From: a virus
Taxonomy: Duplodnaviria; Caudoviricetes
Virus record (IMG/VR): IMGVR_UViG_3300027740_000003
Coordinates: 256,001 to 320,000 of that record
Direction: 5' to 3' (one strand)
DNA length: 64,000 nucleotides
Made by a program: the position numbers and the translations under genes. A model generated the notes under the pieces. It searched no databases, was not told where the DNA came from, and was given only the letters and a program-made list of their open reading frames with translations. Shown here piece after piece: positions 12,601 through 44,357 of this stretch (within the stretch, counting starts at the first letter, position 1; every line of letters begins with the position of its first letter).

Positions 12601-15075
12601 TTACTCTAGTAATCCAACAGAAACTCTAATGAAGATAAAATTAACCCCGTAAACAGGCTGTATTTTTACCGTAATATTCCATTGAGTTGGATCTACTGTA
12701 TCCCTAGCAATCTTAAGATCCTTCCATGTTGTTATCAGGCCTTGTCCAACAAAGCTTGACAAAGCAGATTGTCCACGAGTTTGTAAGGCGCTCTCAAACA
12801 CTGGAGAATCAGTTAATCCAATAAATCCATCAAATGCTGTTCTGAGCTGCTTAGCAACACTGTCCCTAATAAAGATAATAGAGATTTCTCTTTCCTCTAC
12901 GAAACCACTATTGGTTGTGGTCTGGCCTCTAATAACTTTTCCACCACCAGTTATTGGCTGAAGAACAGTAATGCCTGCTGCTGTTAAATTCTGTAGAATT
13001 ATTGGACGATATGTCTTGTCTCTGAGAATTGTAAACCCAGTTAATGACTTTCTTGTCAATGGCATTGCTATGTTGGTCACTCCTGAGAGATATCCTGCTG
13101 CTGCCGCGGCCTGATAGAATCCGTCAATTAATGTGTTGTCCGCCCCTATCTGAACCACAATCTCATCAGGATAGAAATAAACAACACGATATGTGGTTCC
13201 ATAAGAATTCTGGACACCATAATCAGCAAGATCTTCTACAGACCCTGCTAGAATCTCAGTGACATCGTCTCCTTGAATTCCTTCAAGAACGCCAATGTTC
13301 TCAACTGCTGCATCTTCTGTTCCTATAACGTTGGCTGGTGTCAATCCTGCAATTGCCCCAATAAACAGAACTCTTTCTTTTCTATTCTTAATATTACTCA
13401 TATATCTAACATGGGCAACACCATTCTGGAATATTGCAGAAATTGTTTGTCTTGGAAGAGGAACGACTATATCAACATCAATTCGCTCCAATTCCTCATA
13501 AGCTGATATCCATCCTGCATCAAAGAAATCCGCATCGCGAGTATCAACTACTGTTGCCCTAATCTGGGTTCCAGCAGGAATTTGTGCAGCAAGATCCTCA
13601 GTAAACAGAATCTTTATTCCCTCTTCAATTGAATCAATTACCTCGAATTGCAAAGCTGTCTCATTAACGAAGGTTCCGCTAACTCTGCTGATTGTTAATA
13701 CGCCAGCACTAACTCCAGTAATTGCAAAAGTTCCGTTATTATCAGGATTAGTAGCGTTAAATACATGAACGCTTCTTGTGCCATTTATATCATCCTGACC
13801 AAAAATCTGACCAACACTTGAGAACGTTGCATGAGTTGCGTCAACAAAAGTAAGCACACCATCGTTGTCAAACTTTACAACAGCAGTATTTGTATCAACA
13901 ACTGCTGTGTATGAGAATGAAAACACTGGATTCAATATGAAGTTTGTATCCGGGTTTGCGGTAATTGTTGCATCATAGAAAGCAACCTTGTTTGGAACAA
14001 TCTGTGATTCCACACCTGTTATTGGATTTGTTAAAAAGAAGTTGATATTGCTATCAGCATCCGGAACAACTCCAAGTGGAAGAGGGAATGTTAAATCTTC
14101 AGGATCTGCATCTCCCGAAGCGCTTTCCATTATGATATAAGAAACTCTTCGTGGAATTGAAGGGGCTGCTTGAAGAGCCCAAACGCCAGGAGTTCCGTTT
14201 GCAAAGGCTAACTGAGCACCTAAAGACAAGGTATTGGTTGTACTTGGCGCACCATGCTTTGTCTGTAATTCATCAAAATCCGTAAAAAATTCAGGATCAT
14301 TTATATCCGTCACAGCAATGTAAGTGGCTGTCAAACTGTCTCCAGCAAGAAGCACGCCACCTTCCACTTCGATTATGAACCTATCTCCCTCACGGAAAGC
14401 AGTTGTTCCTTCGCTAATTGAGAAGGATAAGATTCCATTGCTAACCACGGTTCCATTTGACTGCCAGAAAACCACATTTCCATAACCATCAAGAGGACTT
14501 CCGCTAACAGAACCATTAGCAATAAATCTAGCATATCCATCAATTGGATTGCCATAACCATCTCTTATAATCGAGGATACACGAATTGACCAGGTTTCTG
14601 ATGGGGCATTAACGTCAACCAATGTAAGATTGCCAATTGTTCCATTTCCTGTATTCAATGAACTGGCGGAATAATACTGACCACCCTGATCAACAATAGA
14701 AGCTGTTTGCAGCTCAATTTGTCCGGTTTCAGGATCTACTCTGTAATCATAGCTGCTACTAAATGTTCCAGTTATAACACCTTCTGTTCCGGCAAGCAAA
14801 ATGCCATTTTTATAAAGACTTGTTCTGTTCTCAATAATAGGAGCATGGCTTAGCAAGAAATGACGGCCATCTGATCCATTTGGACCTGCATAAGTCGGAT
14901 CAAATCCATCATTACCGTCTCCGTTTGCCGAACTAACTAAAGTTTCTTTTCGGGCACCTTCTCCAACTAGAACAGCAAGCCGCGTTCCAGCTGGAATAGA
15001 CAAACCACTAGAGAAAGTCTCAATTGACGTATATACGCCGGGAAGTGCATTCTGCGATTCTGGGAAGCTAGGCAT
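12601..15075 (-). CDS. Tail sheath protein
   Basis: N-terminal PGVYTSIE motif; C-terminal sheath domain (AAAGYLSG...PLTRKSLTGF...REISIIFIRDSVAKQLR...WNITVKIQPVYGVNFIFIRVSV). Confidence 0.88.
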   Translation of the reverse strand: MPSFPESQNALPGVYTSIETFSSGLSIPAGTRLAVLVGEGARKETLVSSANGDGNDGFDPTYAGPNGSDGRHFLLSHAPIIENRTSLYKNGILLAGTEGVITGTFSSSYDYRVDPETGQIELQTASIVDQGGQYYSASSLNTGNGTIGNLTLVDVNAPSETWSIRVSSIIRDGYGNPIDGYARFIANGSVSGSPLDGYGNVVFWQSNGTVVSNGILSFSISEGTTAFREGDRFIIEVEGGVLLAGDSLTATYIAVTDINDPEFFTDFDELQTKHGAPSTTNTLSLGAQLAFANGTPGVWALQAAPSIPRRVSYIIMESASGDADPEDLTFPLPLGVVPDADSNINFFLTNPITGVESQIVPNKVAFYDATITANPDTNFILNPVFSFSYTAVVDTNTAVVKFDNDGVLTFVDATHATFSSVGQIFGQDDINGTRSVHVFNATNPDNNGTFAITGVSAGVLTISRVSGTFVNETALQFEVIDSIEEGIKILFTEDLAAQIPAGTQIRATVVDTRDADFFDAGWISAYEELERIDVDIVVPLPRQTISAIFQNGVAHVRYMSNIKNRKERVLFIGAIAGLTPANVIGTEDAAVENIGVLEGIQGDDVTEILAGSVEDLADYGVQNSYGTTYRVVYFYPDEIVVQIGADNTLIDGFYQAAAAAGYLSGVTNIAMPLTRKSLTGFTILRDKTYRPIILQNLTAAGITVLQPITGGGKVIRGQTTTNSGFVEEREISIIFIRDSVAKQLRTAFDGFIGLTDSPVFESALQTRGQSALSSFVGQGLITTWKDLKIARDTVDPTQWNITVKIQPVYGVNFIFIRVSVGLLE

Positions 15076-15153
15076 CTGATAATTCCTTATTACCTTGGTA
15101 AGAAAACTACTATCTTTTTATATGCAAAATTATTGCTTACTATTTTTAATCTA

Positions 15154-15954
15154 TTATTCCCCAATTTGTTCCTCCGAAAACGATACGTTTTCTAACTCAA
15201 GTTCCGTATGAACTTCAATATTTGGTGCGTAATTATCTGCACTTACATCTCCAAATTCTACACAAAATGTAATTAATTCAACAAAATTAGATATTGGGAT
15301 CTCTCTTCTCCATTCTCCACGTATATTTATTGTTATTATCCTATGGTGAAGCTTATCATTGCGGTCTTCCGATTCGCTAGCACCAGAAACGGAAATATCA
15401 GGTTTAATGGACACGCCAGCCCTATAAAGATTATTCCAATTAATATCAATTAAATAAATAGAAATAAGTTCAGCAAGATCATCAGCTTCCTGAATAGCTC
15501 TTGATTGCACCTCTATATTTATTGAACCTTCCCAAGCACCAGCCATTACAAATTTATCTGGTGTTGGTAAAAACCGTCTTTGATAACCATCAGTAAATTC
15601 AGTTATATTATTTTCTACATAATACAAGTTTCTATTTAAAGAAATTGGGACATAACGAAACGAACCTGCTTTTACAAGAATAGCAGGATATTGAATTATA
15701 TCATACCTGTTATTTTCTCCAATAAAAACGCGGGTAGTCAATTCATCATAAAGACCAGCATCGGCAGGAACATCAGTAAGATCTACAGTTTTATTATATC
15801 CGAAACTGTCTCCGTGCCAGGAATATTTGCTATCCTGCCCAAAAAAATCTTTTAAAGAAGCTACTATAAGATCTTTTGGATAGCGCAACATTGTATTTTG
15901 AACTATATAATAAAGATCATATAGTTCTGTATTATAAGAAAATCCGGCTGCCAT
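15154..15954 (-). CDS. Putative tail terminator / neck-tail completion protein
   Basis: Immediately upstream of sheath; YPAILVK and WEGSINIEVQSRAIQEADDLAELI pattern typical of tail completion proteins. Confidence 0.5.
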   Translation of the reverse strand: MAAGFSYNTELYDLYYIVQNTMLRYPKDLIVASLKDFFGQDSKYSWHGDSFGYNKTVDLTDVPADAGLYDELTTRVFIGENNRYDIIQYPAILVKAGSFRYVPISLNRNLYYVENNITEFTDGYQRRFLPTPDKFVMAGAWEGSINIEVQSRAIQEADDLAELISIYLIDINWNNLYRAGVSIKPDISVSGASESEDRNDKLHHRIITINIRGEWRREIPISNFVELITFCVEFGDVSADNYAPNIEVHTELELENVSFSEEQIGE

Positions 15955-16036: not shown

Positions 16037-16630
16037 ATGACTCGCATTGCAACAATTACAACGATCCTACTGCTTTACGGCTGTGGGTCGTCTACGACCA
16101 TCGTAGAGGGCACTGCTGAACCAGGAGAAGCCGGCCAGGCTCCCATTGATGAAACAGGTGGGTTAGAAGAAACGGGCGGCACAGGAGGCTCCACAGGAGG
16201 AAATCTTCCTACTGGCGGATTTGCTACTGGTGGAGAGCTCCCCACTGGAGGAACAATTACTGGCGGTGCTGCCGGAGCTGTTTCTACTGGAGGTCAAGAA
16301 ACTGGTGGAACACCAGAAATTCCAGGATGTACAGTATTAAAAGAAACAGAAGGCGGAGCTTGCACACAATATAAAGCTTGGGATAACCCTCCAAGTCCAC
16401 GAACAGAATGGAACAACGAATTAAACTGCACAGAATCCACATATCTTTCTGATGAAAATTTCTGTAATGTAGGAGCTATTCCTGCCAATCCAAATATTTG
16501 TGAAGACGGAGATACAATTTTTCCATTAGAAAATTTAAAATGTATGTTGTTGGTACATACTTGGCAAATTACCGAACCAACTGTTATTACATATAAAGAA
16601 AAAAACTGGTGCTGTCAATGGTTGGTTTAG
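16037..16630 (+). CDS. Lipoprotein with TGG-rich linker and Cys-rich C-terminal domain
   Basis: Signal peptide MTRIATITTILLLYG-C lipobox, G/T/E-rich repeats (TGG), nine further Cys; opposite strand to neighbours. Confidence 0.8.
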   Translation: MTRIATITTILLLYGCGSSTTIVEGTAEPGEAGQAPIDETGGLEETGGTGGSTGGNLPTGGFATGGELPTGGTITGGAAGAVSTGGQETGGTPEIPGCTVLKETEGGACTQYKAWDNPPSPRTEWNNELNCTESTYLSDENFCNVGAIPANPNICEDGDTIFPLENLKCMLLVHTWQITEPTVITYKEKNWCCQWLV

Positions 16631-19600
16631 AACCTATATTTAATTATAAGAGTAAGATTTATATCTGAAACAGCACTGGTTTGTAAATCAGCAAGAATTT
16701 CTATTTCAACATTTTCTTCAAGTTTTCTATTTATATCTATTGTTGCATTTGCTATAGTTGTGGCAGCAAAATTCATTGGGTTAGTACCAGAACTAGCAGT
16801 TGTAATAACGGTGCCATAATCTCCAGCGAGTTCATTATAAATTGCTCTTAATGTTATATTTCCTGTTGTTGCAAATATAACTGACGTCTCACCATAAATT
16901 GTTGCAGACATAATATATGCGCCACTTGGAATAAATCCTTTAAGTGGCAAACACCACCTTGATGTTGCTGCGCTTGTACTTATTGCAGAATCATATCTTA
17001 ATTGAATAGTCTCACTATTATTAGTTGCCGCTGTGTTTTTGCCCCAATAAATTGGGCTGTTATTCCAATGCGTCCATCTATATGTTCCATATGTCCATAT
17101 TGGCGTACCTTGGGTTGTTTTAACAGGGAATGTAATAACGTGATTTATATTTCTCTCAACTATAGTTGGTGAAGCTCTTCCCATTGCTACATCAATAGTA
17201 ATTTCACTTGTTCCGTCTACTGTAGTTTTATCTAAATAGTTGTCTGTAATTATACCTGCCCCGGATCCTACAATATAATAAGTTATGCTATTTGTTCCTC
17301 TGAACAAATAGTTGTTGCTTATTATTGATCCTGTTGCTTCAGTATATGTTGAAATAACAGTATATATTCCGTATGTTGTAAAGGCACGAATAGTATTTCC
17401 AGTAATTACACATGGGGACAGAGCTCTAATACCATATGTATATTCAAGAACAGTAGCGCTACTATAAGTGCTTCCTGACTGGAATGAGTTATTTATTATC
17501 TTGGCTGGGATAAGTTGCGGTGCTGCCGAAACATTATCATACACATTTATTCCATAATTAACATTTAAATGAGTATCATATGCACCAAACGTGGTTGTAA
17601 ATACAGATCTTGTTAGAATGTTCCCATCTAGTATTACTGCACTCTGCCCAGTTCTTGGTGTTGCATTAGAGGTGTAATTAAAATTAATAGTAGAACATGA
17701 GTTGTTTCTAACAATTGTAGATGCAAGTGTTTTTGGAACAGTAATATATATTTGACCATAAATATCTACTGCGCCATAAATTGCATTACATGCATTTTCA
17801 GATATAAATAACCCAGGCTGATTATTGCTATCTTCCGGATCAATGTTAGATCCGGCAGATACACCAATATATCCACATTTGTTCTTGCTGATATGAACAT
17901 TAATAGCTGTAATTGGTGGAAGAGCTGTAGAAGATGTTCCAACAATAAATATACCTTGTTCTTGTGCACAAATATTTTTTTCAATAAACACATTGTTTAA
18001 TATAGAGTGAACAAGGCCGTCTGTATTTGAATTTGCAATAACAATAGCAGCAGAAGTGGTTGCATAAGTATCAGAAAATGAGTTGCCAATAATTGAACAA
18101 TTTTCGACAATATTATTATTCAATATCATATAAATAAATGGATAACGATAAGGATTGCCGGCTCCAAAAAAACTACAGTTTTCAATATTTATATTATTTA
18201 TTGTAGAAGAAGAAAGTGTTGGTTTAATAAGAACACAGGCCAAAGGAGCCGACAAACTAATATTTACATTATTTCCCGTTGCTAAAGATGGCCCATATAT
18301 AAAATTAATGTTTCTTATAGAAACACTGTCAGCAACTTTAATTCCAACCGTAGAACTAATAACAATTGTTGCTGATTCTATGCCGTCAGCTTCTAAAACC
18401 AAATTTGGTATTGCTGAGAAATCTAACGCAGTAGATAATACTATTGTCCCTCTAACAATTACTTTTTGTTTAAATGACTGGCTTGTTGCTGTTGCAGCTA
18501 ATGTTATCCAGTTTTGTAAAGCTTCTGCGCTTCTAAACGAAGCTGAGAAGTTGGTTTCATCCTCTGCCCAAACAAATGGAATATTAAAAGATTCATCAGC
18601 GGCAAATCTTCTAATATCAAGAATGCTAGACAATAACGACCCTGATGCAGTCAGTGTTGCTAATGGCAAAAGATCTTTTCTTTCCGTAATTAGTTCTGTA
18701 AACGTGACGGAAGGAACAAAATAAGACGTTCCACCACCAGAACCAGCCTGTGCAAAGAATTGCTGTTTGGTTGCAGTTATAGGGAGAGATACAAGGGCGC
18801 CATCTTCGTTTACACAAACAACCCAATTAACAGCAGCGCTGCCGCCACTTTCTATTAATCTAGGAATAAGTATTTTACTGTTATTTACAGATACAATATT
18901 GCCATTAATAAAAGCCAGTCCTCCATTAAAATATAAAGCTCTTGTGTCTACAACATCTGTAGCTCCAAGACAATCCAGATCCCTAATTACCCCATTAGCG
19001 TGAAGGGCTCTATCACCGGCAGTTATAAAGCTTTTAGCCGATGCGGTGAATTCTTTTTCACTAATCGATCCTACTTGTCTTTGGTCCCGAACCCTTTCTA
19101 CCAGAAGTCCTCCAGACCAATTCATTTCACAAGTAGATATTAAAGTTAATTCATCATCCTCCATTAATGAAGGCATAACTTCAATATCTACAACTCTAAC
19201 CGGGACTATAGTTGTTGGTGAAGTAGACGTCTCTACATACTCTAGTTCAATATAATCATTCCCGGTCTCATCAAAAACCTTGAACGGAACATTCTTTTTT
19301 CCTGTTGCTGTAATACCAGTGTTAGCTATTGTTGTAGTGCTAGGAGGTTGTGTATCGCCAGCAACAGGCCTTCTGCCTATTCTTGCTGTAAATTCACCAG
19401 TGGTGATATCATATGTATCAATTGATAATCTTATGTATTTATTAAAATTAGCAGTATTATCTCGATATCCTCTTAGTTTCGACGAAACATAATTTATATG
19501 CCAATAAGTAGAATCCAAAGCCGTTGCGGTAGCTCCATGAATTGGCATTCTAGCTCTTTCATGAGAAACTGTCTTTGCGCCTTTGTTGGCATATATTTCA

Positions 19601-21813
19601 TGGAAACGATGATAGTTATAAGCTGATGGGGTAGAGCTGTCGATCATATTATTTAGATCGAAACCAACAGTATCGTTCCCAAAATGTATTCTTACTTGAA
19701 TTCCCATTCCAGGCCCAGTTGAAGAACTAGATGCGCTACCTGTTGCATGAATGCCATTTAATACAGTAATTATTGTATTTGAAGTATCACCTGGACAAGC
19801 TGGCTGATATACAACAGACTCTATAATAAATCTACCATAATCAGCACTATTATAACTAGCCGAATTCACACCGATATTTGGCAGAACGGTAATTGTCTTT
19901 CCTGGTTTTAGACCAGCCGTATTAAGACAATCATATATGGTGTATGTTGTGCTTACACCTACGCCAGAAACGGTTCTTGCTGTAATATCAGCAAGCCAAT
20001 ATCCATCATAAACGCCTATTGCCGATCTTAAATAATCTCTTGCAGAACCATCTGCAACATAATACCTTTGTTTTCTAGGCATTATTATTTTTGATGGATT
20101 TTGTGCATCGGTTGAATTTGTATAAGAAGACCTATATGCAGGGCTGGCCCAATTTCCAGCATTAAAACTTAGGCCTAAAGCGTCCCAATATTTATTATCT
20201 ACGTTATAATCGCCAATAACATTTTCAGTAAAACTTCCTTCAACTCCAGATCCGGAACTCCAATCTCCATTAATTATTGAGAAAGCTGCTCCATCAAAAG
20301 GATCAGTCATTGCTATTCCAAAATTCCCGGCATATTGGAATGCCAAGAATCTCATGTTGTATCCTGACTGTCTAAACACATTGTTTGTGGCCAACACAAC
20401 ACTGTCTAAAGTATACTGTCCAGGAGTAGCTCCAGAGTTGCCAGAAACATCTACAGCAGGCATAACTATAGCTTTTTCAGCCGGATTTCCTGTTGGATAC
20501 AATTCTAAATATAAATTGTAATGTGTAGAATCAATTTGGTTTGGATCAAATCCTATACCAAGAACAGATGCACATCTTGGATCTGCAACAGTGACGCTTG
20601 AATAAAATCCCGGGAAATATCCTGTCGGAGTGGCATTACATGGTGCAGATATTGCTATGCCGTACACATTTGGATCATAAAGAGCCCTGTCTATTCTTGC
20701 ATAGGCATCTGTTGTATCAAGAAGGTTGTTAGAATCTAATCTTACACAGAACTCAATTCCAGGACTATATCTTAAAGATTCTACAATATATTGTGCCTCA
20801 AAATTATAACCGTCTCCATATACAATTCTAAGAATATCTCCCGGTTTAACTTGAGAGAATTCTGAATCTAATTGATATAATTCTGTTGAACTAGTAGGAA
20901 CATTAAATCTGACAATTTGATCGCCATCATTTACATCATCAACCGGTCCTGTCCCAGGAAAAGCTGCCACATAAGCCTGAACTTGTCTCAAAGAAACAAC
21001 AGCATCTCCATAACCATCCGTAATTAAACTCGAAGACCTAGCGTCTCCTGGAACACCCGATGAATGTTGAATTGCCCTATGCAAACCTATTCTCAAATCT
21101 TCAGAGGCATCTAGCTCTTCAAGAGCTGTTTGAACATCTATAGCTTCCTCCGACAACTGCATAAAATTACTGGTATCTACAGATATGGCCGTCGCTGGAT
21201 GAGAACCAGTAATTGCTATTTCATGCCCAACTAATTCGTTATTAATTTGCTCTAAAGCTCTTCCAACATTAGTTGCACTACGTATATTGCCGCTGGTATC
21301 AAGCAGTCCTGACCAAACAAAAGAAGGGTCTCTAGAATCTGAAGGAATGGCATTAATATCAACATGACTTGCTACATGTCGAACCGAGGCAGAACCTCCA
21401 CCAATATGTAAACCAAGACTGGTAGTGAGACCATTAACCGCTGTTTGAAGAGATGTTATAAGTGAAGAATTTGTTGCAATTAAGGATCTTAAACTAGAAG
21501 TGCTATAATCTAGATTAAGTTTCGATTCAGCGATGCCAGCACTGACACCAACTTGAGCATTATCAATAGGAAGGGTGACCAAACCAATAGCGGTTAAAGC
21601 GGCGGCTTTAACCGTTCCATTTGTATTGAATGAAACATCAAGAAATTCTTTCAAAGAATCAAGTGTGCCAGACGGTTTTATGCCAAGCTCTTCTTCAATT
21701 TTAAATACAGCATCGCGCACCTGGTTAAAATTCTGACCACTTATCTCGGAAATGTTATCATTGACGACATAAATAGTAGAGTTGTCATCGTAGCTGTAAG
21801 GGTAGGTTGACAT
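16627..21813 (-). CDS. Large tail fibre / tailspike-like protein with C-terminal beta-helix region, 1728 aa
   Basis: N-terminal H-x-A-x-x-I...NVxxALE fibre repeats; C-terminal Asn/Ile-rich repeats (IENCSF, IIGNSF, ISKNKC, ITGNTI, ISNNYL) typical of pectin-lyase-like beta-helices. Confidence 0.6.
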   Translation of the reverse strand: MSTYPYSYDDNSTIYVVNDNISEISGQNFNQVRDAVFKIEEELGIKPSGTLDSLKEFLDVSFNTNGTVKAAALTAIGLVTLPIDNAQVGVSAGIAESKLNLDYSTSSLRSLIATNSSLITSLQTAVNGLTTSLGLHIGGGSASVRHVASHVDINAIPSDSRDPSFVWSGLLDTSGNIRSATNVGRALEQINNELVGHEIAITGSHPATAISVDTSNFMQLSEEAIDVQTALEELDASEDLRIGLHRAIQHSSGVPGDARSSSLITDGYGDAVVSLRQVQAYVAAFPGTGPVDDVNDGDQIVRFNVPTSSTELYQLDSEFSQVKPGDILRIVYGDGYNFEAQYIVESLRYSPGIEFCVRLDSNNLLDTTDAYARIDRALYDPNVYGIAISAPCNATPTGYFPGFYSSVTVADPRCASVLGIGFDPNQIDSTHYNLYLELYPTGNPAEKAIVMPAVDVSGNSGATPGQYTLDSVVLATNNVFRQSGYNMRFLAFQYAGNFGIAMTDPFDGAAFSIINGDWSSGSGVEGSFTENVIGDYNVDNKYWDALGLSFNAGNWASPAYRSSYTNSTDAQNPSKIIMPRKQRYYVADGSARDYLRSAIGVYDGYWLADITARTVSGVGVSTTYTIYDCLNTAGLKPGKTITVLPNIGVNSASYNSADYGRFIIESVVYQPACPGDTSNTIITVLNGIHATGSASSSSTGPGMGIQVRIHFGNDTVGFDLNNMIDSSTPSAYNYHRFHEIYANKGAKTVSHERARMPIHGATATALDSTYWHINYVSSKLRGYRDNTANFNKYIRLSIDTYDITTGEFTARIGRRPVAGDTQPPSTTTIANTGITATGKKNVPFKVFDETGNDYIELEYVETSTSPTTIVPVRVVDIEVMPSLMEDDELTLISTCEMNWSGGLLVERVRDQRQVGSISEKEFTASAKSFITAGDRALHANGVIRDLDCLGATDVVDTRALYFNGGLAFINGNIVSVNNSKILIPRLIESGGSAAVNWVVCVNEDGALVSLPITATKQQFFAQAGSGGGTSYFVPSVTFTELITERKDLLPLATLTASGSLLSSILDIRRFAADESFNIPFVWAEDETNFSASFRSAEALQNWITLAATATSQSFKQKVIVRGTIVLSTALDFSAIPNLVLEADGIESATIVISSTVGIKVADSVSIRNINFIYGPSLATGNNVNISLSAPLACVLIKPTLSSSTINNINIENCSFFGAGNPYRYPFIYMILNNNIVENCSIIGNSFSDTYATTSAAIVIANSNTDGLVHSILNNVFIEKNICAQEQGIFIVGTSSTALPPITAINVHISKNKCGYIGVSAGSNIDPEDSNNQPGLFISENACNAIYGAVDIYGQIYITVPKTLASTIVRNNSCSTINFNYTSNATPRTGQSAVILDGNILTRSVFTTTFGAYDTHLNVNYGINVYDNVSAAPQLIPAKIINNSFQSGSTYSSATVLEYTYGIRALSPCVITGNTIRAFTTYGIYTVISTYTEATGSIISNNYLFRGTNSITYYIVGSGAGIITDNYLDKTTVDGTSEITIDVAMGRASPTIVERNINHVITFPVKTTQGTPIWTYGTYRWTHWNNSPIYWGKNTAATNNSETIQLRYDSAISTSAATSRWCLPLKGFIPSGAYIMSATIYGETSVIFATTGNITLRAIYNELAGDYGTVITTASSGTNPMNFAATTIANATIDINRKLEENVEIEILADLQTSAVSDINLTLIIKYRF

Positions 21814-22239: not shown

Positions 22240-22629
22240 TTAGTTTTCATTATCTTTTACATAAACATCAATCCAGGCTCGCCAATAAAATCCACTAAAA
22301 TTAATTGGTAAAGCAATAGAGAATCTTGCACATCCTGTCCCAGAAACATATGAGCTTGATAATGATGCTGACGTATATCCTCCATCATCCCAAACAACTG
22401 TAGCTCCAGCAAATACAACTGTCGTATTTCTTTTATTAAAACAATCAAATGCTTTCATGGCAAAATACTCAGTGGGCTCCCGACTATGTGCAACAATATT
22501 TATTTCAAACATATATGTTGCGTCTACCTCAAGAAGAGTGCCAGATGTAAGAGGAATATCTATAGTATTACCACTTGCATCGCTTGGAATATATCCGTCC
22601 ATTGTAAAATGTACAACTTTATCACTCAT
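22240..22629 (-). CDS. Hypothetical virion protein (beta-rich)
   Basis: 129-aa ORF coupled to fibre gene; contains DGY. Confidence 0.55.
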   Translation of the reverse strand: MSDKVVHFTMDGYIPSDASGNTIDIPLTSGTLLEVDATYMFEINIVAHSREPTEYFAMKAFDCFNKRNTTVVFAGATVVWDDGGYTSASLSSSYVSGTGCARFSIALPINFSGFYWRAWIDVYVKDNEN

Positions 22630-34550: not shown

Positions 34551-34834
34551 TATAACCCCCAAGCTTCAATTCTAACCGTTCCACTACCAGAAACCAACCT
34601 AAACCAAATTGCGCTTATATTTCTATTATCAAAAAACATAGCTTGCGTCGGTTGTCCATTCTCCATGTCTCCATTTACATCAACTCCATTAAATGAATAT
34701 TCTATAATCCCAGATCCCTCCCAAGCCAACGAAAAACTTAAATTAGAATGTCTATAATTAAACACAACATCAGCAGTTGTATTAAATGTATATCCGTCAA
34801 CTGCTACTCTTGAAAAAGTATTATAATTAACCAT
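34550..34834 (-). CDS. Small beta-rich virion protein
   Basis: Start likely MVNYNTF at 34834 (AGGTGG RBS); contains DGY. Confidence 0.55.
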   Translation of the reverse strand: MVNYNTFSRVAVDGYTFNTTADVVFNYRHSNLSFSLAWEGSGIIEYSFNGVDVNGDMENGQPTQAMFFDNRNISAIWFRLVSGSGTVRIEAWGL

Positions 34835-34899
34835 TTCCCACCTAAAACATTTGGCGCCATACTTATGCCATTCTATCCATTGCATATTTTGACATTTTT

Positions 34900-36042
34900 G
34901 TGATTATGGCAACACTTGATAATATGGCCGACCAGGCCCTAGATATTGCCGGAACTTTATACCAAACTGATGATTTGGATAAAGTAGACGAAGCAGCACA
35001 ATTAGGAAGACCTATTCAGGTCGGTGCCACTGCATCTATTTTAGGAATTGCTCCGAATTTTACATTATCTGGTCTTGTCGGAATGTCTCAACAAAGCGTT
35101 GGTCATTTCATTACTATAGAAAATGCAAACTCTCCAGGTAATAATAATACTTGCCGTGTTCTAGCTTATATTAATCCAACTACAATAACTATTTTAAATC
35201 CTGCCGGCTCCGGCGGAGATCTAAATAACGGATCTTTGTACTGGATCGAAAGATATCCTTGGTCAGCAGAAGATGACCATAACTTCCACAGAACTGATAG
35301 AGCAGATATTAAAGGCGTCGCTTATGACCAATCTGTTCCAACGTATGTTAGATGTGTTAACCAAAATGCACAAGTTCCGGCTAATCTAGCCAATATTGCT
35401 GGAAAAACAACAGATGCCAAAGCCTTCGTTGATAATATTAAATTTTTAAATGTTAGTGTTAGTATCAGCAACACATTTATTACATTAAATAGTCCTGGAA
35501 ATTTAAAACATGCCAACGCAACAGACATTACAGGTGTTCCCATCAGTGATGGATATGACTCTGGAAATGATGAAGCTACATTTGTTGGTATTATAAAAGA
35601 CGGTTATGGATCGGAACTGACTGTATTAAGAACCGTTGATGGTTATGTTCAGGCTGGTTGGAGAATTTTCGGAAAAACAAGGGCAGGATCTGCACTGTCC
35701 CCTAACTCTGTTGAAATTGAATTATTTGCTATGCAAAATGGCGGGTCTTTAGATAACGCACTTCCTTATACTTGGGAAATAGGACAACCAACATTAGTTC
35801 ATCTAATTATAGGATATAGAAGTTGTTTATATAATCTTTCTGAAATAGCTTTTAGAAAAGCGTTGATATATTCTATGTTATATGGAGAAGAAGATCTTCC
35901 TGCTCCTAATGGTATTGGGCAGGTTTTAATGGCAATAGACGGAACAAGATTTATTCCTGCAATGCCGGTGACATCAATTAACGGATGGCTGGTTAATGAC
36001 GAAGGTATATTAATTGTTAATGATATATATGGAGAAGTATAA
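34900..36042 (+). CDS. Putative virion structural/appendage protein
   Basis: First gene of plus-strand island; three DGY motifs; ATG at 34906 is an alternative start. Confidence 0.6.
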   Translation: MIMATLDNMADQALDIAGTLYQTDDLDKVDEAAQLGRPIQVGATASILGIAPNFTLSGLVGMSQQSVGHFITIENANSPGNNNTCRVLAYINPTTITILNPAGSGGDLNNGSLYWIERYPWSAEDDHNFHRTDRADIKGVAYDQSVPTYVRCVNQNAQVPANLANIAGKTTDAKAFVDNIKFLNVSVSISNTFITLNSPGNLKHANATDITGVPISDGYDSGNDEATFVGIIKDGYGSELTVLRTVDGYVQAGWRIFGKTRAGSALSPNSVEIELFAMQNGGSLDNALPYTWEIGQPTLVHLIIGYRSCLYNLSEIAFRKALIYSMLYGEEDLPAPNGIGQVLMAIDGTRFIPAMPVTSINGWLVNDEGILIVNDIYGEV

Positions 36043-37730
36043 TGGCATTTCCTGGTGATAGAGCTTGGAAACTTAAAAGAACTGTTCCGTCTGCTAAAAT
36101 TTACGGAACTCCTTCACACGATTGTTGGTTAGTATTAACTCACGACAATTTGCCTGATGCAATGATTACCCTTGGCGGAGCACAAGGAATGCAACAATAT
36201 GCTGCTGATTTAGCAGCCAGCTCAGATTCCGAAGGATTAACACGAATTCCTCTATGGGTTTGTAGGGCAGATTTAGACGCAACCCCTGCAAACAGTCGTG
36301 TAGAAATATGGATACGTAGACAAGATGTGTCAGACACTTTAGATACAGATGTTTGGTTGTGGTGGGGATCTGCCGTAGAAGTTGCACCAGGAGTGACAGA
36401 AGATTATGGTCGAAATGATGTTTGGAATGGAACTACAGGAACTGGAATTCCAGTTGTATCATGGGCAGTATGGATGTTTGACGAGGACCCTGCCGCTCCG
36501 GCCCCGGCATATACAGACGTTTCTGGAAATGGACATCATGGATATGTTTTTGGAACCATAACACGTGTTGATTGTGCTCCTGGTAGAGGTTTAAGCACAG
36601 TTGCTGGAGGTGGCTGGGTAGATACAGCAAGCACAACGTGGGCTCCCGGAACAGGAGACTTTTCCGTAATAGAAGTATATCAACGCTCCGATGCAACCAG
36701 AGCTGGTGGTTCATATTTTAACGTCAATGAATTTGCTTTAGGCCCTGATTTCATATCTGCTACATTTAATACTGGAAACTATACATGGATGGTAACACAA
36801 CCTGTAGGAACCCCATATTTGGTTGGAGGATCTAGAGATGGCGATAATTTTACCATGTATTTAGATACGGCAATTCAAAATGATACAGGATGGTCAGAAG
36901 TTAATGCTTCTAGTTCTGGAGCATTAACTGTGGTTTGGGATTACCATTCAGATACTAGATATTGTTCTTTCTTAGGACTTCTTAATAGTGCCCCCAATTC
37001 ATATTGGTGGCGTACTATGTATGAAAATATTATTGCTGGTTCTTTTTGGGACGAAACAGGAACTATCCAACCAGCAGCAATTACTGCACAAATATATTTT
37101 GATGGTTTACAAACAAATTCAGAGGTTAGAATATATGAAACCCCACATACTCAAATCTGGACCGCAAATTTCGCCGGCCTCACCTCACCATTATTATGGG
37201 GAGATTATATAGCTTTTCAAATCCAAAGAGCCTCATCAACAGAAAATCATTATGCTTGGTTTACTAATTCAGAAGACGGATATGCAGACCCTGCAATAGC
37301 AGAAAGTATAGGCCATAAAGTAGTAGTAAATGACGGATATACAACAACACAAATTGCAACAAAATTTGCATCTGCAATTGATGGTTATGCAGATGTATCA
37401 GCTGTATCATCAGTTGCAATTGCAACTATTACTAATGATAGAAATGGACAAACAGATGAACCTACCGATGGAGGAACTTTAGCCACTTTAACAGTTGTAC
37501 AAATAGGAGGAACCGCTACAACTGAAATAGATGGCATAGAAAATAGCACAGGATCATCATGGACAGCAGAATATCAAGTTATTAGACCAAGACGCGCTAT
37601 TATCCATATAATACACTTGTTATATCAAAATAAAAGATATAGCACTATTTTAAACACATCGGGGTTGGTTGTTCCAGCCGGTGCTCTGCAAATTATAGAC
37701 AGACAATATTCAAATCCAGCAGGTCCATAA
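36042..37730 (+). CDS. Putative appendage protein with DUF2341-like N-terminus and concanavalin/LamG-like domain
   Basis: DSEGLTRIPLWV...EIWIR...TDVWLWWG pattern; WMFDE...TDVSGNGHHG LamG-type motif. Confidence 0.55.
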   Translation: MAFPGDRAWKLKRTVPSAKIYGTPSHDCWLVLTHDNLPDAMITLGGAQGMQQYAADLAASSDSEGLTRIPLWVCRADLDATPANSRVEIWIRRQDVSDTLDTDVWLWWGSAVEVAPGVTEDYGRNDVWNGTTGTGIPVVSWAVWMFDEDPAAPAPAYTDVSGNGHHGYVFGTITRVDCAPGRGLSTVAGGGWVDTASTTWAPGTGDFSVIEVYQRSDATRAGGSYFNVNEFALGPDFISATFNTGNYTWMVTQPVGTPYLVGGSRDGDNFTMYLDTAIQNDTGWSEVNASSSGALTVVWDYHSDTRYCSFLGLLNSAPNSYWWRTMYENIIAGSFWDETGTIQPAAITAQIYFDGLQTNSEVRIYETPHTQIWTANFAGLTSPLLWGDYIAFQIQRASSTENHYAWFTNSEDGYADPAIAESIGHKVVVNDGYTTTQIATKFASAIDGYADVSAVSSVAIATITNDRNGQTDEPTDGGTLATLTVVQIGGTATTEIDGIENSTGSSWTAEYQVIRPRRAIIHIIHLLYQNKRYSTILNTSGLVVPAGALQIIDRQYSNPAGP

Positions 37731-37733
37731 TTT

Positions 37734-38261
37734 ATGGTTACAGCTCTACACAAAGATCATGGCGTTCCAGAAGGTATTCATCAAATATATAACTGGAATT
37801 TTGTCAATGAATCTACAAGATTATCACATATTTATCTTTCTAAAGATATAGGCAAAGTAGCAAGACAAACAAATGACAATACGTTTTGGCTGCTAACAAA
37901 TTATTTCCCCACAACATTTGTTCAAATTGGAGGTTCCGGCTCATTAACCCCAACAAATCATCAAACTCTAAGACAACTAATTCATTTGGCCTTTGGAGGC
38001 CCATTCGAGGGTTTCTCAGGTGCTTATAAAGAAATTTTACCAGTAAGCGATCCCTTCCCAACAAATATTACTTGGTGGACTAATTCTAGTAAAACAAATA
38101 AAATTATTGAAAAAATAATAATAAGAAACGACTCTCAAATACCAATAGTAATAACATATAACGTTTATGAAATAGATGGAATTACTATTGAAGCGTCTGC
38201 AATTGATAATATTGTTTATAATGGAATATTCGAAATTAGCAGAGAAAGGATTATTATATGA
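37734..38261 (+). CDS. Hypothetical virion protein
   Basis: N-terminal domain resembles the 71-aa ORF at 40541-40756. Confidence 0.6.
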   Translation: MVTALHKDHGVPEGIHQIYNWNFVNESTRLSHIYLSKDIGKVARQTNDNTFWLLTNYFPTTFVQIGGSGSLTPTNHQTLRQLIHLAFGGPFEGFSGAYKEILPVSDPFPTNITWWTNSSKTNKIIEKIIIRNDSQIPIVITYNVYEIDGITIEASAIDNIVYNGIFEISRERIII

Positions 38262-38629
38262 GTGATAGCCCTGCTGTAATATTATATGACGGATACAGTA
38301 ACCCGGTTGTTATTGAAAATAATACCGAATTTCCATCGTCTCAAGGAATTGTTCCTGTGGGAGGAATTACTACAGACGGTTATGCATCTGTTATTTTATT
38401 AAATAATGACGGAACTCTATCTTCTTATAAAAAAACAGAAAGATTTGAAAAAATCACAGTTGGAACAACAGATACTATCTATATGGGAGAGGCTGTGCCA
38501 GGATCTGCTGAAGGATCTTCGGTATGGCTAATTAGACGAGTAATAATTACAGATAATTTTCCAGTATCAATAATGATATCTAACGAAAATGTTTCTTGGA
38601 ATAATAGGAATATTATCGAATATTATTGA
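38258..38629 (+). CDS. Hypothetical virion protein
   Basis: C-terminal IYMGEAVPGS...VWLIRRV...WNNR motif seen in small phage structural proteins; two DGY. Confidence 0.6.
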   Translation: MSDSPAVILYDGYSNPVVIENNTEFPSSQGIVPVGGITTDGYASVILLNNDGTLSSYKKTERFEKITVGTTDTIYMGEAVPGSAEGSSVWLIRRVIITDNFPVSIMISNENVSWNNRNIIEYY

Positions 38630-38650
38630 ACAATAATATAAGGTGAATAT

Positions 38651-40057
38651 ATGGCTTTAATTGTAGACCCAGATTATCTTCATGATGCTCCAAATTCCAG
38701 CTCTTTAGATGGATATGAAGTTTTTATAGATACTACTAATTTATATATACAGCTTAATATTGACGGATATCTATCAACCGATGGCGTCACCATTAAATGC
38801 TTATATTCATTTTTAAAAGAAGAATGGCGGCTTGATCCTAATGCAAAGAATCTGGCGGCTTTTCCTTTCCCCATGACGCCAATTACGGATGAATCTTTCG
38901 AACTCACAGATGGGTGGAATTTTGACGGATATCAATCACAATATTTGATTAGAACAGGTGGCTGGACTGTAAGAAATATTTCTGGCAACGTCACGGAAAA
39001 ATGGTCCGGAATTATCGGATTAGGCACAATCCAAGCCGATGATCAGCTATATTTCTATCAGGGAGTTGATGCCGAAAACGTTCAGCTACAGGGGCAAGTA
39101 AACCAAGCAGTAACGGTCCTCAGTGACCCAAATGGTGACGGAACCTTTACTGACGGCTATGATTATAGAACTGCATTTACTATATTCTGCCGCGAGTATC
39201 AGCAGACATATGACTCATCAAATCTTGCTGACATCGGTGTTACTACCATGGATTCGATTGCTTATCGTTTCCCCCTATCAACAGCAACAGATTTAAAAAT
39301 CACTCATAACGATTCAACCGTTTCCACAACAGCTCCTTATACAGGAATGAGCATTACTTATTATGCAACTCCACAATCAAGAACAATTGGAAGTTCAAGT
39401 TATAACTTTGGTATTATCATAAATGGAAATAGTGGAACCGCAGAACAAATATATGAATTTGTTCAATATAAATTAAGACAAAATTCAGATATCGATGCTG
39501 GTGCTGGTATTGTTATTGGTAAAACGGCAGATGCTTTGTTGGGATTTGTCGGAGACACATTATATACCAAGACTGCAACAAACCCATCTGGGGGCGGAAC
39601 AGGTGTGTTTATCGACAACTATCAGGTCGTAGATGTTAACAGACTGGTGCTTACTGACAACACTGAAACAGAAAGAACCTTCCCTTATGTTGCTGCTTTA
39701 ACAATAAACGTCGGCGCAAACCTTACTGGAGATGCGGCTGCTAAATATTGGGTATATTTCACAACTTTACCAGGTGGAGCAGATTACGGAACATCATTGG
39801 CGGTTATTACTGAAGACGCAGATGGTTATGATATGTCTGGAGATATAAGCGGAGACGCCTCAATTCAGCATTCATTTGCTTATGATACAAATAATCAAGG
39901 GGGCAGAACTCCAGCAACAGATGCAGTAATAACTGTAGTGGCAATTGGACTTAGTACCGGACAATATGTTAGAGCAACTGGAACAATTGCCAGGTCTACA
40001 TCTAACGTAGTTTCGTTGGTTGCTGCTCTCGAAAGAAACTACTCTAACCCAGCTTAA
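38651..40057 (+). CDS. Putative virion structural protein
   Basis: 468 aa, AAGGTG RBS, Thr/Gly-rich beta-type sequence; five DGY. Confidence 0.65.
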   Translation: MALIVDPDYLHDAPNSSSLDGYEVFIDTTNLYIQLNIDGYLSTDGVTIKCLYSFLKEEWRLDPNAKNLAAFPFPMTPITDESFELTDGWNFDGYQSQYLIRTGGWTVRNISGNVTEKWSGIIGLGTIQADDQLYFYQGVDAENVQLQGQVNQAVTVLSDPNGDGTFTDGYDYRTAFTIFCREYQQTYDSSNLADIGVTTMDSIAYRFPLSTATDLKITHNDSTVSTTAPYTGMSITYYATPQSRTIGSSSYNFGIIINGNSGTAEQIYEFVQYKLRQNSDIDAGAGIVIGKTADALLGFVGDTLYTKTATNPSGGGTGVFIDNYQVVDVNRLVLTDNTETERTFPYVAALTINVGANLTGDAAAKYWVYFTTLPGGADYGTSLAVITEDADGYDMSGDISGDASIQHSFAYDTNNQGGRTPATDAVITVVAIGLSTGQYVRATGTIARSTSNVVSLVAALERNYSNPA

Positions 40058-40078
40058 CCAACCCGAGAGTAAGATATA

Positions 40079-40540
40079 ATGGGATATATTTTTGATGGAT
40101 ACAATGCTATAATTATATTAGATTCAATTGAAGAATTTAATATCGAAGATTTGTATTCTCGTTGGAAAGAATGGGTTCTAGACGGATACTCACAATATCC
40201 TGTTGCCTTCCGAACTCTTGGTGGGGACCCTATCTCTGCAACTCAAGAAATTGCCCCCTATTTTTTCTTAAATACAACTGATGGTTGGAGAATAAGACCT
40301 TATGAATCAGATCATGAACTCCATATCATAGGAAACTTATATCCAGAAAACCCATTGGATCCTATGTTTACTCCAACATTGGGAGAATATACCGTATTAG
40401 TCACTATAGAAAGATCTTCATCAGCCATAGCTTTTGAGGTAAATACAGGAAGTGGATTAACTCCAACACAAAGTATGTGGCTAGAAACCCTATTTAAAAA
40501 TATTCCACTTCAAACCATTTTATCATTAAGGGCAAAATAA
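40079..40540 (+). CDS. Hypothetical virion protein
   Basis: 153 aa, DLYSRWKEW...AFRTLGGDPI...YFFL..GWRIRP; two DGY. Confidence 0.65.
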   Translation: MGYIFDGYNAIIILDSIEEFNIEDLYSRWKEWVLDGYSQYPVAFRTLGGDPISATQEIAPYFFLNTTDGWRIRPYESDHELHIIGNLYPENPLDPMFTPTLGEYTVLVTIERSSSAIAFEVNTGSGLTPTQSMWLETLFKNIPLQTILSLRAK

Positions 40541-42493: not shown

Positions 42494-42531
42494 CAAACAA
42501 AAACGGCCTCCCTTTTCAAGGAAGCCGTTTT
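42494..42531 (-). terminator. Rho-independent terminator after major capsid gene
   Basis: AACGGCTTCC...GGAGGCCGTT stem followed by TTTGTTT on the minus strand. Confidence 0.75.
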
Positions 42532-42569
42532 CAATTTTTATCCATCACTAGGATTTGTTCCTAAGAACA

Positions 42570-43583
42570 TTATCCAACTAGCGTGCTCTTCCGACCTGCC
42601 GAAATTCCTCGCGGGTTCACAATGCCGATACCAATTATTTCTGATACCACCCAACCGAGTTTTAACTGTTTTGGTTCGTCAGCTGGTAAAACTTCAATTT
42701 CCTGTCTAACAGGCATAACACCAACGAACTCAGGATCTGCACAAGCATATACTGTTCCTGGGGGAACAATCTTGCTAACCATTATGTCTGCGCCCCAAAT
42801 ATGAGCATAAAGCCCTGTCTGGAGAATTTCACGCTGGCTAACAGGATCAATCTCGCCCTGTCCAACAGTACCACCACCGGATGCCCAGTTAAGAATATCA
42901 GTGTACTCACTGATGTTCATGAAATACTTGGTTGTGACGTTGTCCCAACGATCAATTTGAACCTTGAGCTCAACAAGATCACGCTTAAGCATTCCCTGGT
43001 CAGCAATGTCCTGAATGGTATTTTCAACACTTGAAGCTGCATCAATAGCCGCAAAGACGTTAGCGTCTTCCTGGGCCATAATTTCCTGACGTGCCTTCTG
43101 AACAGCACGGTCAATGATGTTAAATCTGCGTCTCTTTACTTCCGCAATTCTAACAGTTGGATTCGAGAAAATCTCGAATTCAGGAATGGTCACTCTGTCG
43201 CCGAATACACGGCTTTCTGGACCGGTACCATTTGAGGACACAACTACTGCTGTGACATCAATATCACGGTCATACACAGGGAGAGCTCCCTGAGGAAGAG
43301 GATCAACAACCAGTGCTCTACGAGCAATTCCCTGGTAATCTAAGTTACGACGGATAGGATTTGCCATTGCTTGAGCAAGAGCAATTTTGCCTTGCTGCGA
43401 CATAATGGCAGACTCTACTAGCTGATCTCTACGATCTGCCGAGAGTTGAGGCTGACCAGCAAGAGCTAGATTAGAAGGAGCGTTCTCCTCTAGAATAGCT
43501 GCGAACTTTGCCAGCTGCATGAATGCATCTTGAAGATTGCTTGCATTCATCTGACCTTTGCTATTAAACAGTTGACTATACAT
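42570..43583 (-). CDS. Major capsid protein (HK97-fold)
   Basis: 337 aa; IARRALVVDPLPQGALPVYD...IPEFEIFSNPTVRIAEVKRRRFNIIDRA...EDANVF pattern; AAGGAG RBS; follows decoration gene and precedes terminator. Confidence 0.85.
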   Translation of the reverse strand: MYSQLFNSKGQMNASNLQDAFMQLAKFAAILEENAPSNLALAGQPQLSADRRDQLVESAIMSQQGKIALAQAMANPIRRNLDYQGIARRALVVDPLPQGALPVYDRDIDVTAVVVSSNGTGPESRVFGDRVTIPEFEIFSNPTVRIAEVKRRRFNIIDRAVQKARQEIMAQEDANVFAAIDAASSVENTIQDIADQGMLKRDLVELKVQIDRWDNVTTKYFMNISEYTDILNWASGGGTVGQGEIDPVSQREILQTGLYAHIWGADIMVSKIVPPGTVYACADPEFVGVMPVRQEIEVLPADEPKQLKLGWVVSEIIGIGIVNPRGISAGRKSTLVG

Positions 43584-43688
43584 ATTTTTATTTTCTCCTT
43601 ATTTGCCTGTCATAAACCGGCTAATAATTTATATTGGGGTTAAATGAGGGGCGGACAGAAAATCCGGCCGCCCCACAAGTTTTATTTA

Positions 43689-44357
43689 TTAATACTCTGG
43701 ATCGAAATGAATTACGACCTGAGTAAATGCTACCTGAACAGGAGTCTGAACTAGGTAATTAGGTGTAGTCACCAAACTGCCATTTGTTGAGAATTCAACA
43801 AGTCTTGCAACAACAAGGTTTGCTGCGTCAAATGAATCACCAGATGAAACTGGAGTCAAAAGACCTAAAGCTGTTGCTGTAAGAGGTTCGCCAACATCAA
43901 GTAAAGCATTGCTTGGAACAAGACCATCAGCTGAAGTATCAACAGATGCTAATGTCACTGCATATAGACCGGGTTTATCCCAAAGGGTAACCTTGCCGGA
44001 ACCAGCACCAGTGTGTGGACCATAGTTATTACCAGTTGTATTCTGACCAGCAATTGTCCCAATTACTGCACCGAACAGAGTTCCATAACCAGTTGTTCCT
44101 TCATCAGCAAGGAATACGGGTCGTTGACCGTCTGGTAGGAAGCGAGTGACGATAGGACGATATTTTGTGGTTGTTCCCACATAACCGTCAGATCCGTTTG
44201 CATCAGCAGCAGCTTTATCTGTTCCAGTAATGTCATAGTTAACTAAGGTAACTACTTCACCACCAGTAAGAGCAAAAATGCTGCCTGTAGTGACTAGAAT
44301 GTCATAACCATCGAATTGACCGAGTGGATATATTGCCTGTAATGGTTTAAGAGCCAT
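43689..44357 (-). CDS. Capsid decoration/cement protein
   Basis: Directly upstream of MCP; TGAGSGKVTLW motif; two DGY. Confidence 0.65.
   Translation of the reverse strand: MALKPLQAIYPLGQFDGYDILVTTGSIFALTGGEVVTLVNYDITGTDKAAADANGSDGYVGTTTKYRPIVTRFLPDGQRPVFLADEGTTGYGTLFGAVIGTIAGQNTTGNNYGPHTGAGSGKVTLWDKPGLYAVTLASVDTSADGLVPSNALLDVGEPLTATALGLLTPVSSGDSFDAANLVVARLVEFSTNGSLVTTPNYLVQTPVQVAFTQVVIHFDPEY

Follow-up and report, generated by a model that had tools for sequence, protein, structure and literature searches.

Why should one tripeptide, Asp-Gly-Tyr (DGY), recur in protein after protein of a phage virion and not in the proteins encoded beside them? The question is raised by a stretch of 64,000 nucleotides (hereafter the window), which comprises bases 256001–320000 of IMG/VR record IMGVR_UViG_3300027740_000003, a phage genome of 435,004 bp and 35% GC (G000). 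The initial annotation of the window had counted 34 DGY tripeptides in 15 proteins of about 7,000 amino acids (aa), and had proposed that they mark outer virion proteins as a modification sequon or a docking site. Every per-protein count was reproduced, in carriers that sum to 7,007 aa. The results presented here suggest that DGY is a short linear motif under selection, whose most probable role is that of an acceptor sequon for the modification of its Tyr by glycosylation, a reading that we place first and hold with somewhat less than even confidence.

Coordinates marked "window" count from window position 1, and those marked "genome" refer to the G000 record. The major capsid protein (MCP; window 42570–43583) shares 51% identity with its counterpart in Bacillus phage G, the nearest cultured relative. 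The sheath gave weak matches only to cultured phages (25–31% identity, in its C-terminal part), and a contractile sheath fold was predicted for the product of window 12601–15075 using AlphaFold2 (AF2) and Foldseek. Given the phage-G-like MCP and the predicted contractile sheath, G000 can be described as an uncultured phage-G-like jumbo myophage. No cultured member of its clade was found, as a 553-aa marker protein had no match among 50,697 phage records. Phage G infects a Bacillota host; by weak inference, Bacillota is also the likely host phylum of the clade.

Enrichment of DGY in the virion region

Window counts were made on the translations of 54 long open reading frames (ORFs), with 1000 within-protein residue shuffles as the control, and whole-genome counts on crude gene calls (627 ORFs, 132,279 aa). 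Throughout, "x vs y" denotes the number observed vs the number expected from composition. The composition of the carriers predicts 1.9 DGY, in agreement with the roughly two estimated in the initial annotation, and that of all 54 ORFs predicts 3.5. The shuffles gave a mean of 3.54 and a maximum of 10. The annotation had further reported that the other proteins of the window contain none. The count of zero holds for the remaining 13,709 aa; with about 1.7 expected there, it does not amount to a depletion (Poisson P ∼0.18). As such a zero is ordinary by chance, the contrast between carriers and non-carriers stems from the enrichment in the carriers.

The enrichment extends beyond the window to the virion region as a whole (genome 195–321 kb), where we observed 82 DGY vs 7.9. 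A first-order Markov model predicts 16.8 and the maximum among shuffles was 18, and therefore the signal survives both composition and Markov controls. DGY was the top tripeptide of this region, with none other close. Over the whole of G000 it likewise ranked first among tripeptides for over-representation (101 vs 20.8), and outside the virion region (∼91,000 aa) its count was normal (19 vs 12.9). The tripeptides most over-represented outside 195–321 kb were DII (139 vs 37.6), KDI, IKD, IIE, MIK, KNP and NPS.

The signal is specific to both order and residue. Tyr follows 29% of the Asp-Gly dipeptides in the virion region and 5% of those elsewhere in the genome, and the remaining five orderings of Asp, Gly and Tyr occurred 9–14 times each vs 7.9. 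The conservative variants DGF (12 vs 8.1), NGY (9 vs 7.9), EGY (1 vs 7.1) and SGY (10 vs 9.3) were not enriched; DGW was mildly raised (6 vs 2.3). With DGF, NGY and EGY at these levels, neither turn propensity nor aromaticity accounts for the signal. A generic preference for Asx-Gly β-turns was rejected on the same grounds, as NGY is unenriched and the rest of the genome and the outgroups described below are normal.

The DNA behind the motif was then considered. The pattern GAYGGNTAY occurs 82 times in frame 0 of the virion region, four times in the other sense frames and once antisense. The 82 sites use 11 distinct 9-mers, among them GAT GGA TAT at window position 38708, GAC GGC TAT at 39152 and GAT GGT TAT at 39821, the three examples of synonymous variation given in the initial annotation. 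The in-frame bias and the spread over synonymous codons demonstrate that selection is on the peptide and not on the DNA. A DNA-level motif, whether for restriction or modification, recombination or regulation, is refuted by the frame and strand bias together with the 11 codon combinations. A separate codon preference was observed and was not used as evidence: Asp is encoded by GAC at 43% of the DGY sites of the region, vs 22% in other Asp-Gly (P ∼7e-4) and 20% overall (P ∼5e-6), and G001, a complete relative introduced below, does not display it.

Residues around the motif showed weak preferences, with charged residues depleted at positions −1 and −2 and β-branched residues slightly raised at +4 and +5. 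When 63-aa segments around the sites were compared between proteins, the 23 similar pairs fell to 0 after masking DGY itself, and random segments of the same proteins gave 4–13. This agrees with the initial description of the flanks as unrelated, and a shared or duplicated domain was rejected as the source, as the masking leaves no inter-protein similarity. In total, 128 of 133 site contexts were non-redundant. The sole true repeat is a tandem unit inside a 1208-aa fibre, which adds a few duplicated sites. The sites are clustered along the proteins (median gap 37.5 aa vs 77 for random placement), and spacings of 15–19 aa recur.

Distribution among phages and turnover of the sites

The distribution of DGY was followed in 58 IMG/VR relative loci, namely those retrieved with the G000 sheath (sheath identity 41–77%), and in complete genomes. 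The loci contained 304 DGY vs 39.6, with NGY (21 vs 43.9) and EGY (10 vs 32.5) both depleted. The complete relative G001 (441,904 bp, 44% GC), whose sheath is 45% identical to that of G000, contained 52 DGY vs 6.2 in its virion module (260–380 kb) and normal numbers elsewhere. The enrichment is, therefore, repeated in independent genomes of 35% and 44% GC. Two further DGY-rich genomes (G002 and G003) and a close syntenic relative of G000 (L105) were included in the comparisons.

Four phages served as outgroups: phage G, T4, the Tunturiibacter phage Tunturi_5 and the uncultured 485-kb phage LR745208. DGY was not enriched in the virion proteins of T4 (5 vs 2.5, ranking 761st among tripeptides), the tail module of phage G (2 vs 1.7) or LR745208 (0 vs 1.5), and Tunturi_5 (5 vs 1.9) was counted as unenriched. 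An enriched clade set against unenriched outgroups identifies the trait as a lineage-specific gain, as the initial annotation had suggested checking. The spread of the trait in metagenomes is wide, with three carrier families having from 481 to >3,400 database relatives each.

Within families the motif can be strongly retained. The 553-aa neck-like family has 111 homologues (45–90% identity) with a mean of 4.98 DGY vs 0.17; five columns carry the motif in 75–109 of the 111 sequences, and 13 of the 15 motif residues are at least 90% conserved at a mean column identity of 53%. The sheath columns hold the motif in 26–30 of 49 homologues, and further columns gained DGY in subsets of them. Among the homologues of a 222-aa decoration-like protein, DGY57 is present in 119/119 and DGY16 in 69/119, the others reading DGL, DGV, DGK or DGQ; the N-terminal site lies three residues further on in G001.

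Between genomes, number is kept better than position. Orthologue pairs of G000 and G001 carry 8/5, 7/5, 3/3, 3/3, 5/5 and 2/2 DGY, with 6 positions in common and with 25 found in G000 alone and 23 in G001 alone. The counterparts of private sites are mostly other xGx turns (SGS, SGT, NGT, DGH, DGE, GGH) or gaps, and 28% of the sites touch an indel, vs 6.6% of all residues. The syntenic L105 has 13 DGY vs 1.0, but its per-protein counts differ from those of G000. In both complete genomes the densest carriers are fast-evolving, non-orthologous fibres, with 19 sites in 1208 aa and 8 in 420 aa.

Recent gains were seen in the family of a 468-aa protein, which is spread over diverse phage types (at least 3,433 database matches, with at least 58% identity among the best). 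Its five DGY are found only in G000 and two relatives at 83–88% identity; a relative at 76% has a single DGY and reads EGY and DGV at two of the other sites, and about 100 homologues at 58–72% identity carry 0–2. The gained sites read VGN/TGN, LND, EGS/DGF or SAA in other homologues. Contigs of other phage types with 66%-identical homologues were DGY-poor (1 vs 0.5 and 0 vs 0.66), and these homologues themselves have none. DGY is thus gained convergently when a protein enters the lineage. Conservation within families, turnover of positions at a kept count and recent gains together indicate selection for having DGY that is largely independent of position.

The structural context was obtained from AF2 models of the sheath (32-sequence alignment, mean predicted local distance difference test (pLDDT) score 75.6) and the 553-aa protein (66 sequences, pLDDT 84.6). 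None of the eight modelled sites is predicted to fall within a regular strand or helix in the DSSP strings. Most of their residues are modelled as coil, with three isolated bridge residues, in what appear to be hairpin turns or short bridge-closed loops, often just before or after a strand or an isolated bridge residue. All three sheath sites are in coil of local pLDDT 82–91, and those of the 553-aa protein are in turns or coil, including the highly conserved DGY295, which occupies a conserved loop of pLDDT <50 that is probably flexible. The initial annotation had suggested mapping the sites to surface loops or β-turns; they lie in loops, turns and indel-prone locations, and the exposure of their Tyr at the surface is putative.

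Readings of the motif and candidate machinery

A bare, order-specific tripeptide that sits in loops, marks one protein class in one lineage and drifts in position behaves like a short linear motif or sequon. A trans-acting factor that reads the site would fit the strict order of Asp, Gly and Tyr and the unrelated flanks. As Asn, Glu and, for the most part, Phe are excluded, the Asp carboxylate and the Tyr hydroxyl are probably the parts that matter. In the proposed mechanism, the lineage would select for the number of DGY, not for their exact position, in the loops of the particle's accessory and surface proteins (sheath outer domain, neck, baseplate wedge, fibres and the protein adjacent to MCP). 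A trans-acting factor would read the motif, and the Tyr hydroxyl would be the acceptor of a covalent modification. The best candidate would be cytoplasmic O-glycosylation by the phage's own glycosyltransferases (GTs), and the outcome a glycan-coated tail, baseplate and fibres. We infer all three elements, that is, the factor reading the motif, the Tyr as acceptor and the glycan as modification. The fuller proposal, in which DGY would be the acceptor code of a phage-encoded cytoplasmic Tyr O-glycosylation that coats sheath, neck, baseplate, fibres and head decoration clade-wide, is possible and more doubtful. Most of the tests named for the sequon-or-docking-site reading of the initial annotation favoured a selected recognition motif, and that reading remains the leading candidate.

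Tyr O-glycosylation was ranked first because a large GT locus lies inside the virion module, as was found on following up the suggestion to search the genome for tailoring enzymes. This glycan locus of ∼18 kb (genome 220903–239233) is situated after the fibre cluster and immediately upstream of the DGY-rich baseplate genes. Its products are three NAD-dependent epimerase/dehydratases, RmlD-like and RmlC-like proteins, a UDP-GlcNAc 2-epimerase and a methyltransferase, together with one GT4 and eight or more enzymes of GT2 type, including a 925-aa multi-domain protein. The gene order is the same in G001: a flavin adenine dinucleotide (FAD)-dependent oxidoreductase, DGY-rich fibres, a ribonucleotide reductase block, the glycan locus and the baseplate. 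PF00535 matches over the cut-off numbered 7 in G000, 3 in G001, 4 in G002 and 4 in G003, vs 0 in phage G, 0 in LR745208 and 2 in Tunturi_5. No oligosaccharyltransferase turned up, in analyses that made no search aimed at one.

A second candidate, a GT2-like protein (genome 198048–198800), is encoded between two DGY-rich fibre genes. It was recognised by its Atlas features (0.98) and by TM scores of 0.73–0.75 to GT2 models, and has no Pfam match. A complex predicted between this protein and the N-terminal 170 aa of the neighbouring 404-aa protein scored 0.00, which speaks neither for nor against binding.

Known systems offer partial parallels. N-X-S/T and the Bacteroidota O-glycosylation motif D-S/T-A/I/L/V/M/T are three-residue glycosylation sequons. 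Like them, DGY is minimal and order-specific with free flanks, is over-represented on surface proteins, drifts in position at a kept number and occurs with GTs in the same genome. Unlike them, it would have Tyr as the acceptor, with Gly at −1 and Asp at −2, and would putatively be used in the cytoplasm on phage structural proteins. In mycobacteriophages, a 2023 study by Freeman and colleagues reportedly described virion glycosylation in which phage GTs are encoded beside structural genes and capsid and tail-tube subunits are modified, with no defined tripeptide code. Phage-encoded GT genes beside or among virion genes are common to both, and covalent modification of the particle would be as well. 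The differences are that the carriers here are sheath, neck, baseplate, fibres and a decoration-like protein, and that the locus is far larger, with at least nine GTs and a sugar-nucleotide pathway. Atypical glycosylation sequons have been described in a chlorovirus capsid protein (PMC9614988). In the S-layers of Bacillota, Tyr carries O-linked β-Glc or β-Gal, and the glycans contain rhamnose and ManNAc (PMC2943079). The likeness is a Tyr acceptor on a self-assembling surface array, and the rhamnose and ManNAc match the RmlC/D-like and UDP-GlcNAc 2-epimerase types of the glycan locus. S-layer glycans differ in that they are transferred outside the membrane by an oligosaccharyltransferase, at few specific Tyr. 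The words "consensus" and "sequon" are absent from the text of the S-layer review (PMC2943079). The positional drift of DGY resembles the glycan shields of animal viruses.

Several observations weigh against an acceptor sequon for glycosylation of Tyr. MCP and the tail tube (window 11910–12557) have 0 DGY, unlike the mycobacteriophage case, in which capsid and tube are reportedly the substrates. DGF is raised 2.3-fold in the loci of the relatives and takes the place of DGY at some columns, which implies that the Tyr hydroxyl is dispensable at some sites. The depletion of charge at −1 and −2 is equally compatible with the end of a strand. The correlation between GTs and DGY is suggestive, and is a single contrast of one clade vs three outgroups that lacks phylogenetic independence. 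The glycan locus might serve to modify the host surface or DNA instead. Lastly, the fibre-embedded GT2-like protein was rejected as a universal writer, as it has no homologue in G001–G003, and no specific writer is therefore pinned. The explanations that compete with a modification sequon are, in order, a binding patch, another covalent modification and a structural habit.

The first of these, which we consider unlikely, is that DGY is a functional but unmodified surface patch. Presented on a tight turn at Gly, the Asp carboxylate and the Tyr ring would provide the particle with numerous sites of weak binding to a host or matrix polysaccharide (lectin-like), to Fe3+ or Ca2+ (as hard-oxygen ligands) or to another virion protein. 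The same selection signatures would be expected as for a sequon, and the fibres have the highest density of sites. The clustering of the sites and the mild enrichment of DGW are also consistent with a patch, as are three HxH motifs in the neck-like carrier, a DGY within a dockerin-like Ca loop of a 1003-aa baseplate protein (DGE in G001) and ConA-like lectin paralogues between the fibre genes. In trimeric phage fibres of the T4 gp37/gp12 type, HxH metal repeats are found in regular strands on the three-fold axis. DGY resembles them in having two ligand-capable residues at i and i+2, repeated along fibres, and co-occurs with HxH in the 553-aa protein; it differs in that its modelled sites are in turns or coil (0/8 in the regular strand that an axial metal site needs) and are also found on the sheath and on small proteins. 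A tripeptide alone is, moreover, a very small binding site, and it is unlikely that a single ligand would be encountered by carriers as different as the sheath, the neck and the small proteins. Enzyme recognition would more typically account for the fixed order and for the discrimination against Asn, Glu and, for the most part, Phe.

Another covalent change is improbable, though the motif behaves like a sequon and would serve such a change as well. Under this explanation Tyr or Asp would be sulfated or phosphorylated, Tyr would be hydroxylated to DOPA with oxidative cross-linking, or Asp-Gly would form isoaspartate, and the enzyme responsible might be a further one particular to the clade, for example the FAD-dependent oxidoreductase encoded near the fibres (genome 195579–196817). 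This gene was found in 4/4 DGY-rich genomes tested and is absent from phage G and Tunturi_5; it adjoins the DGY-densest fibres in G000, and in G001 a distance of 5 kb separates the two. The phyletic pattern fits a linked writer, but the gene is often away from DGY-rich genes in seven further relatives, and it was rejected in that role. The oxidoreductase family has no known protein substrate. No sulfotransferase, kinase or PIMT-type enzyme was linked to the module, for which no search was made.

To a purely structural habit we likewise give a low probability. Here the Asp-Gly turn and the Tyr would stabilise hairpins or loops of β-rich virion proteins, the lineage would have fixed the motif again and again to keep the particle stable, and nothing would read DGY. 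The sites at hairpin turns or in coil near strands, the xGx turns that replace them in relatives, the β-branched residues at +4 and +5, the depletion of charges upstream and the DGF tolerated at some columns all suit such a role. It does not explain why NGY, the better type I′ turn, is unenriched in G000 and depleted in the relatives together with EGY, or why the other ∼91,000 aa of G000 show no enrichment. The β-rich virion proteins of T4, phage G, Tunturi_5 and LR745208 are unenriched as well, and MCP and tube have no site. One strongly conserved site is in a low-confidence, probably flexible loop, and the 468-aa homologues fold without any DGY. As for an artefact of composition, DNA motif, gene miscalling or duplicated domains, the tandem repeat in the 1208-aa fibre does duplicate a few sites, but the shuffle and Markov, frame and masking tests, the non-redundant contexts and the recurrence in independent genomes make it hardly credible, and it was rejected.

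Carrier proteins and significance for the phage surface

The DGY carriers matched no family in Pfam or PHROGs, and their roles rest on folds and position. The label "outer virion" used in the initial annotation could be supported in part: the sheath insertion domain, the neck-like protein, MCP, the protease, the tube and a lysin-bearing tail protein were identified, and a plus-strand cluster (window 34900–40540) received no annotation. The tail sheath (824 aa, window 12601–15075, minus strand) carries DGY at residues 172, 179 and 196. In the model these fall in a domain inserted into the conserved sheath core, which from established sheath structures we take to face outward.

On the same strand, a 266-aa protein of unassigned role (window 15154–15954) has DGY122, a site common to its G001 orthologue, and a 1728-aa fibre-like protein (window 16627–21813) has DGY at 266, 334 and 603, with three also in the G001 counterpart. 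They are followed by a 129-aa protein (window 22240–22629; DGY11) and a 603-aa Gly-rich protein (window 22629–24440; DGY74), also on the minus strand.

The 553-aa protein (window 24490–26151, minus strand) carries DGY at 33, 193, 196, 236 and 295. It has an FN3-like part and C-terminal HxH motifs, and its partial match to phage neck proteins suggests a neck or connector role. The C-terminal third of the family consensus contains a CxC...CPxC cluster and three HxH (PHTH, GHNH, GHTH), like the metal motifs of trimeric fibre tips. The start of the gene is overlapped by a 409-aa ORF (window 26120–27349, minus strand) with LAGLIDADG_3 and HTH domains, which is probably a free-standing homing endonuclease, and several homologues of the neck-like protein in other phages are ∼950 aa long with Hint/intein and LAGLIDADG domains.

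Three more minus-strand carriers follow: a 299-aa protein called the adaptor in the initial annotation (window 28527–29426; DGY112, a site not common to G001), a 586-aa fibre-like protein (window 32802–34562; DGY502) and a 111-aa protein (window 34550–34885; DGY30, common to G001, which has a second). Amid these virion genes is a class-V aminotransferase/cysteine-desulfurase-like gene (window 31671–32774, minus strand; PF00266, E 2e-35), which is syntenic in L105 and has its G001 homologue elsewhere in that genome.

The plus-strand cluster encodes proteins of 380 aa (window 34900–36042; DGY at 217, 234 and 247, two in L105), 562 aa (window 36042–37730; DGY at 412, 431 and 447, one in L105), 123 aa (window 38258–38629; DGY at 11 and 40, one in L105), 468 aa (window 38651–40057; DGY at 20, 38, 92, 168 and 391) and 153 aa (window 40079–40540; DGY at 6 and 35, one in L105). 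A Protein Atlas look-up of the very widespread 468-aa protein, with its recently gained sites, gave no usable match. In an unrelated 89.6-kb phage contig its family member is encoded directly after the portal gene, which raises the possibility that the protein belongs to the head or connector and not to the outside of the virion. The 222-aa putative head decoration protein beside MCP (window 43689–44357, minus strand) carries DGY16 and DGY57.

Outside the window, the motif is abundant in the 1208-aa fibre (19), a 943-aa fibre (7), the 1003-aa baseplate protein (8) and a 2230-aa wedge protein (7). In the 1003-aa protein (genome 239300–242311), residues ∼595–680 resemble, by eye, dockerin-like Ca loops of the type DVNGDG-x-[IV]; the residue after DG in such a loop is Tyr in G000 and Glu in G001. 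Three tandem paralogues of 230–242 aa (genome 201641–203777) are encoded between the two DGY-richest fibre genes and themselves have 0 DGY. One of the trio was scanned and is a ConA-like lectin/Laminin_G_3 domain protein. Elsewhere in the window, a 1344-aa protein (window 53394–57428, minus strand) has a head-maturation-protease-like segment at residues ∼124–320, and a second 562-aa protein (window 58317–60005, minus strand) has a MutT/NUDIX-like segment, a NUDIX annotation being found also on a large virion-module protein of Tunturi_5.

A literature search returned no paper on a DGY motif in phages, and the Asp-Gly-Tyr papers listed were not about phages or glycosylation. The observation itself appears to be undescribed. 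To our knowledge, and in the literature searched, phages have not been reported to mark one functional class of their virion proteins with a bare tripeptide. The motif is conserved across thousands of metagenomic relatives. Were DGY a binding or structural device, selection across a proteome on a motif of three residues would still be seen here with unusual clarity. A modification sequon, if that is what it is, would provide a sequence-readable map of modified phage surfaces, would point to a new Tyr-directed transferase specificity with possible use in glyco-engineering, and would suggest that environmental jumbo phages shield or functionalise their tails in the way that eukaryotic viruses use glycan shields. 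If the glycosylation reading is true, this would be the first sequon-defined glycosylation system in bacteriophages, with a new Tyr-directed sequon whose sites are gained and lost like those of an animal-virus glycan shield.

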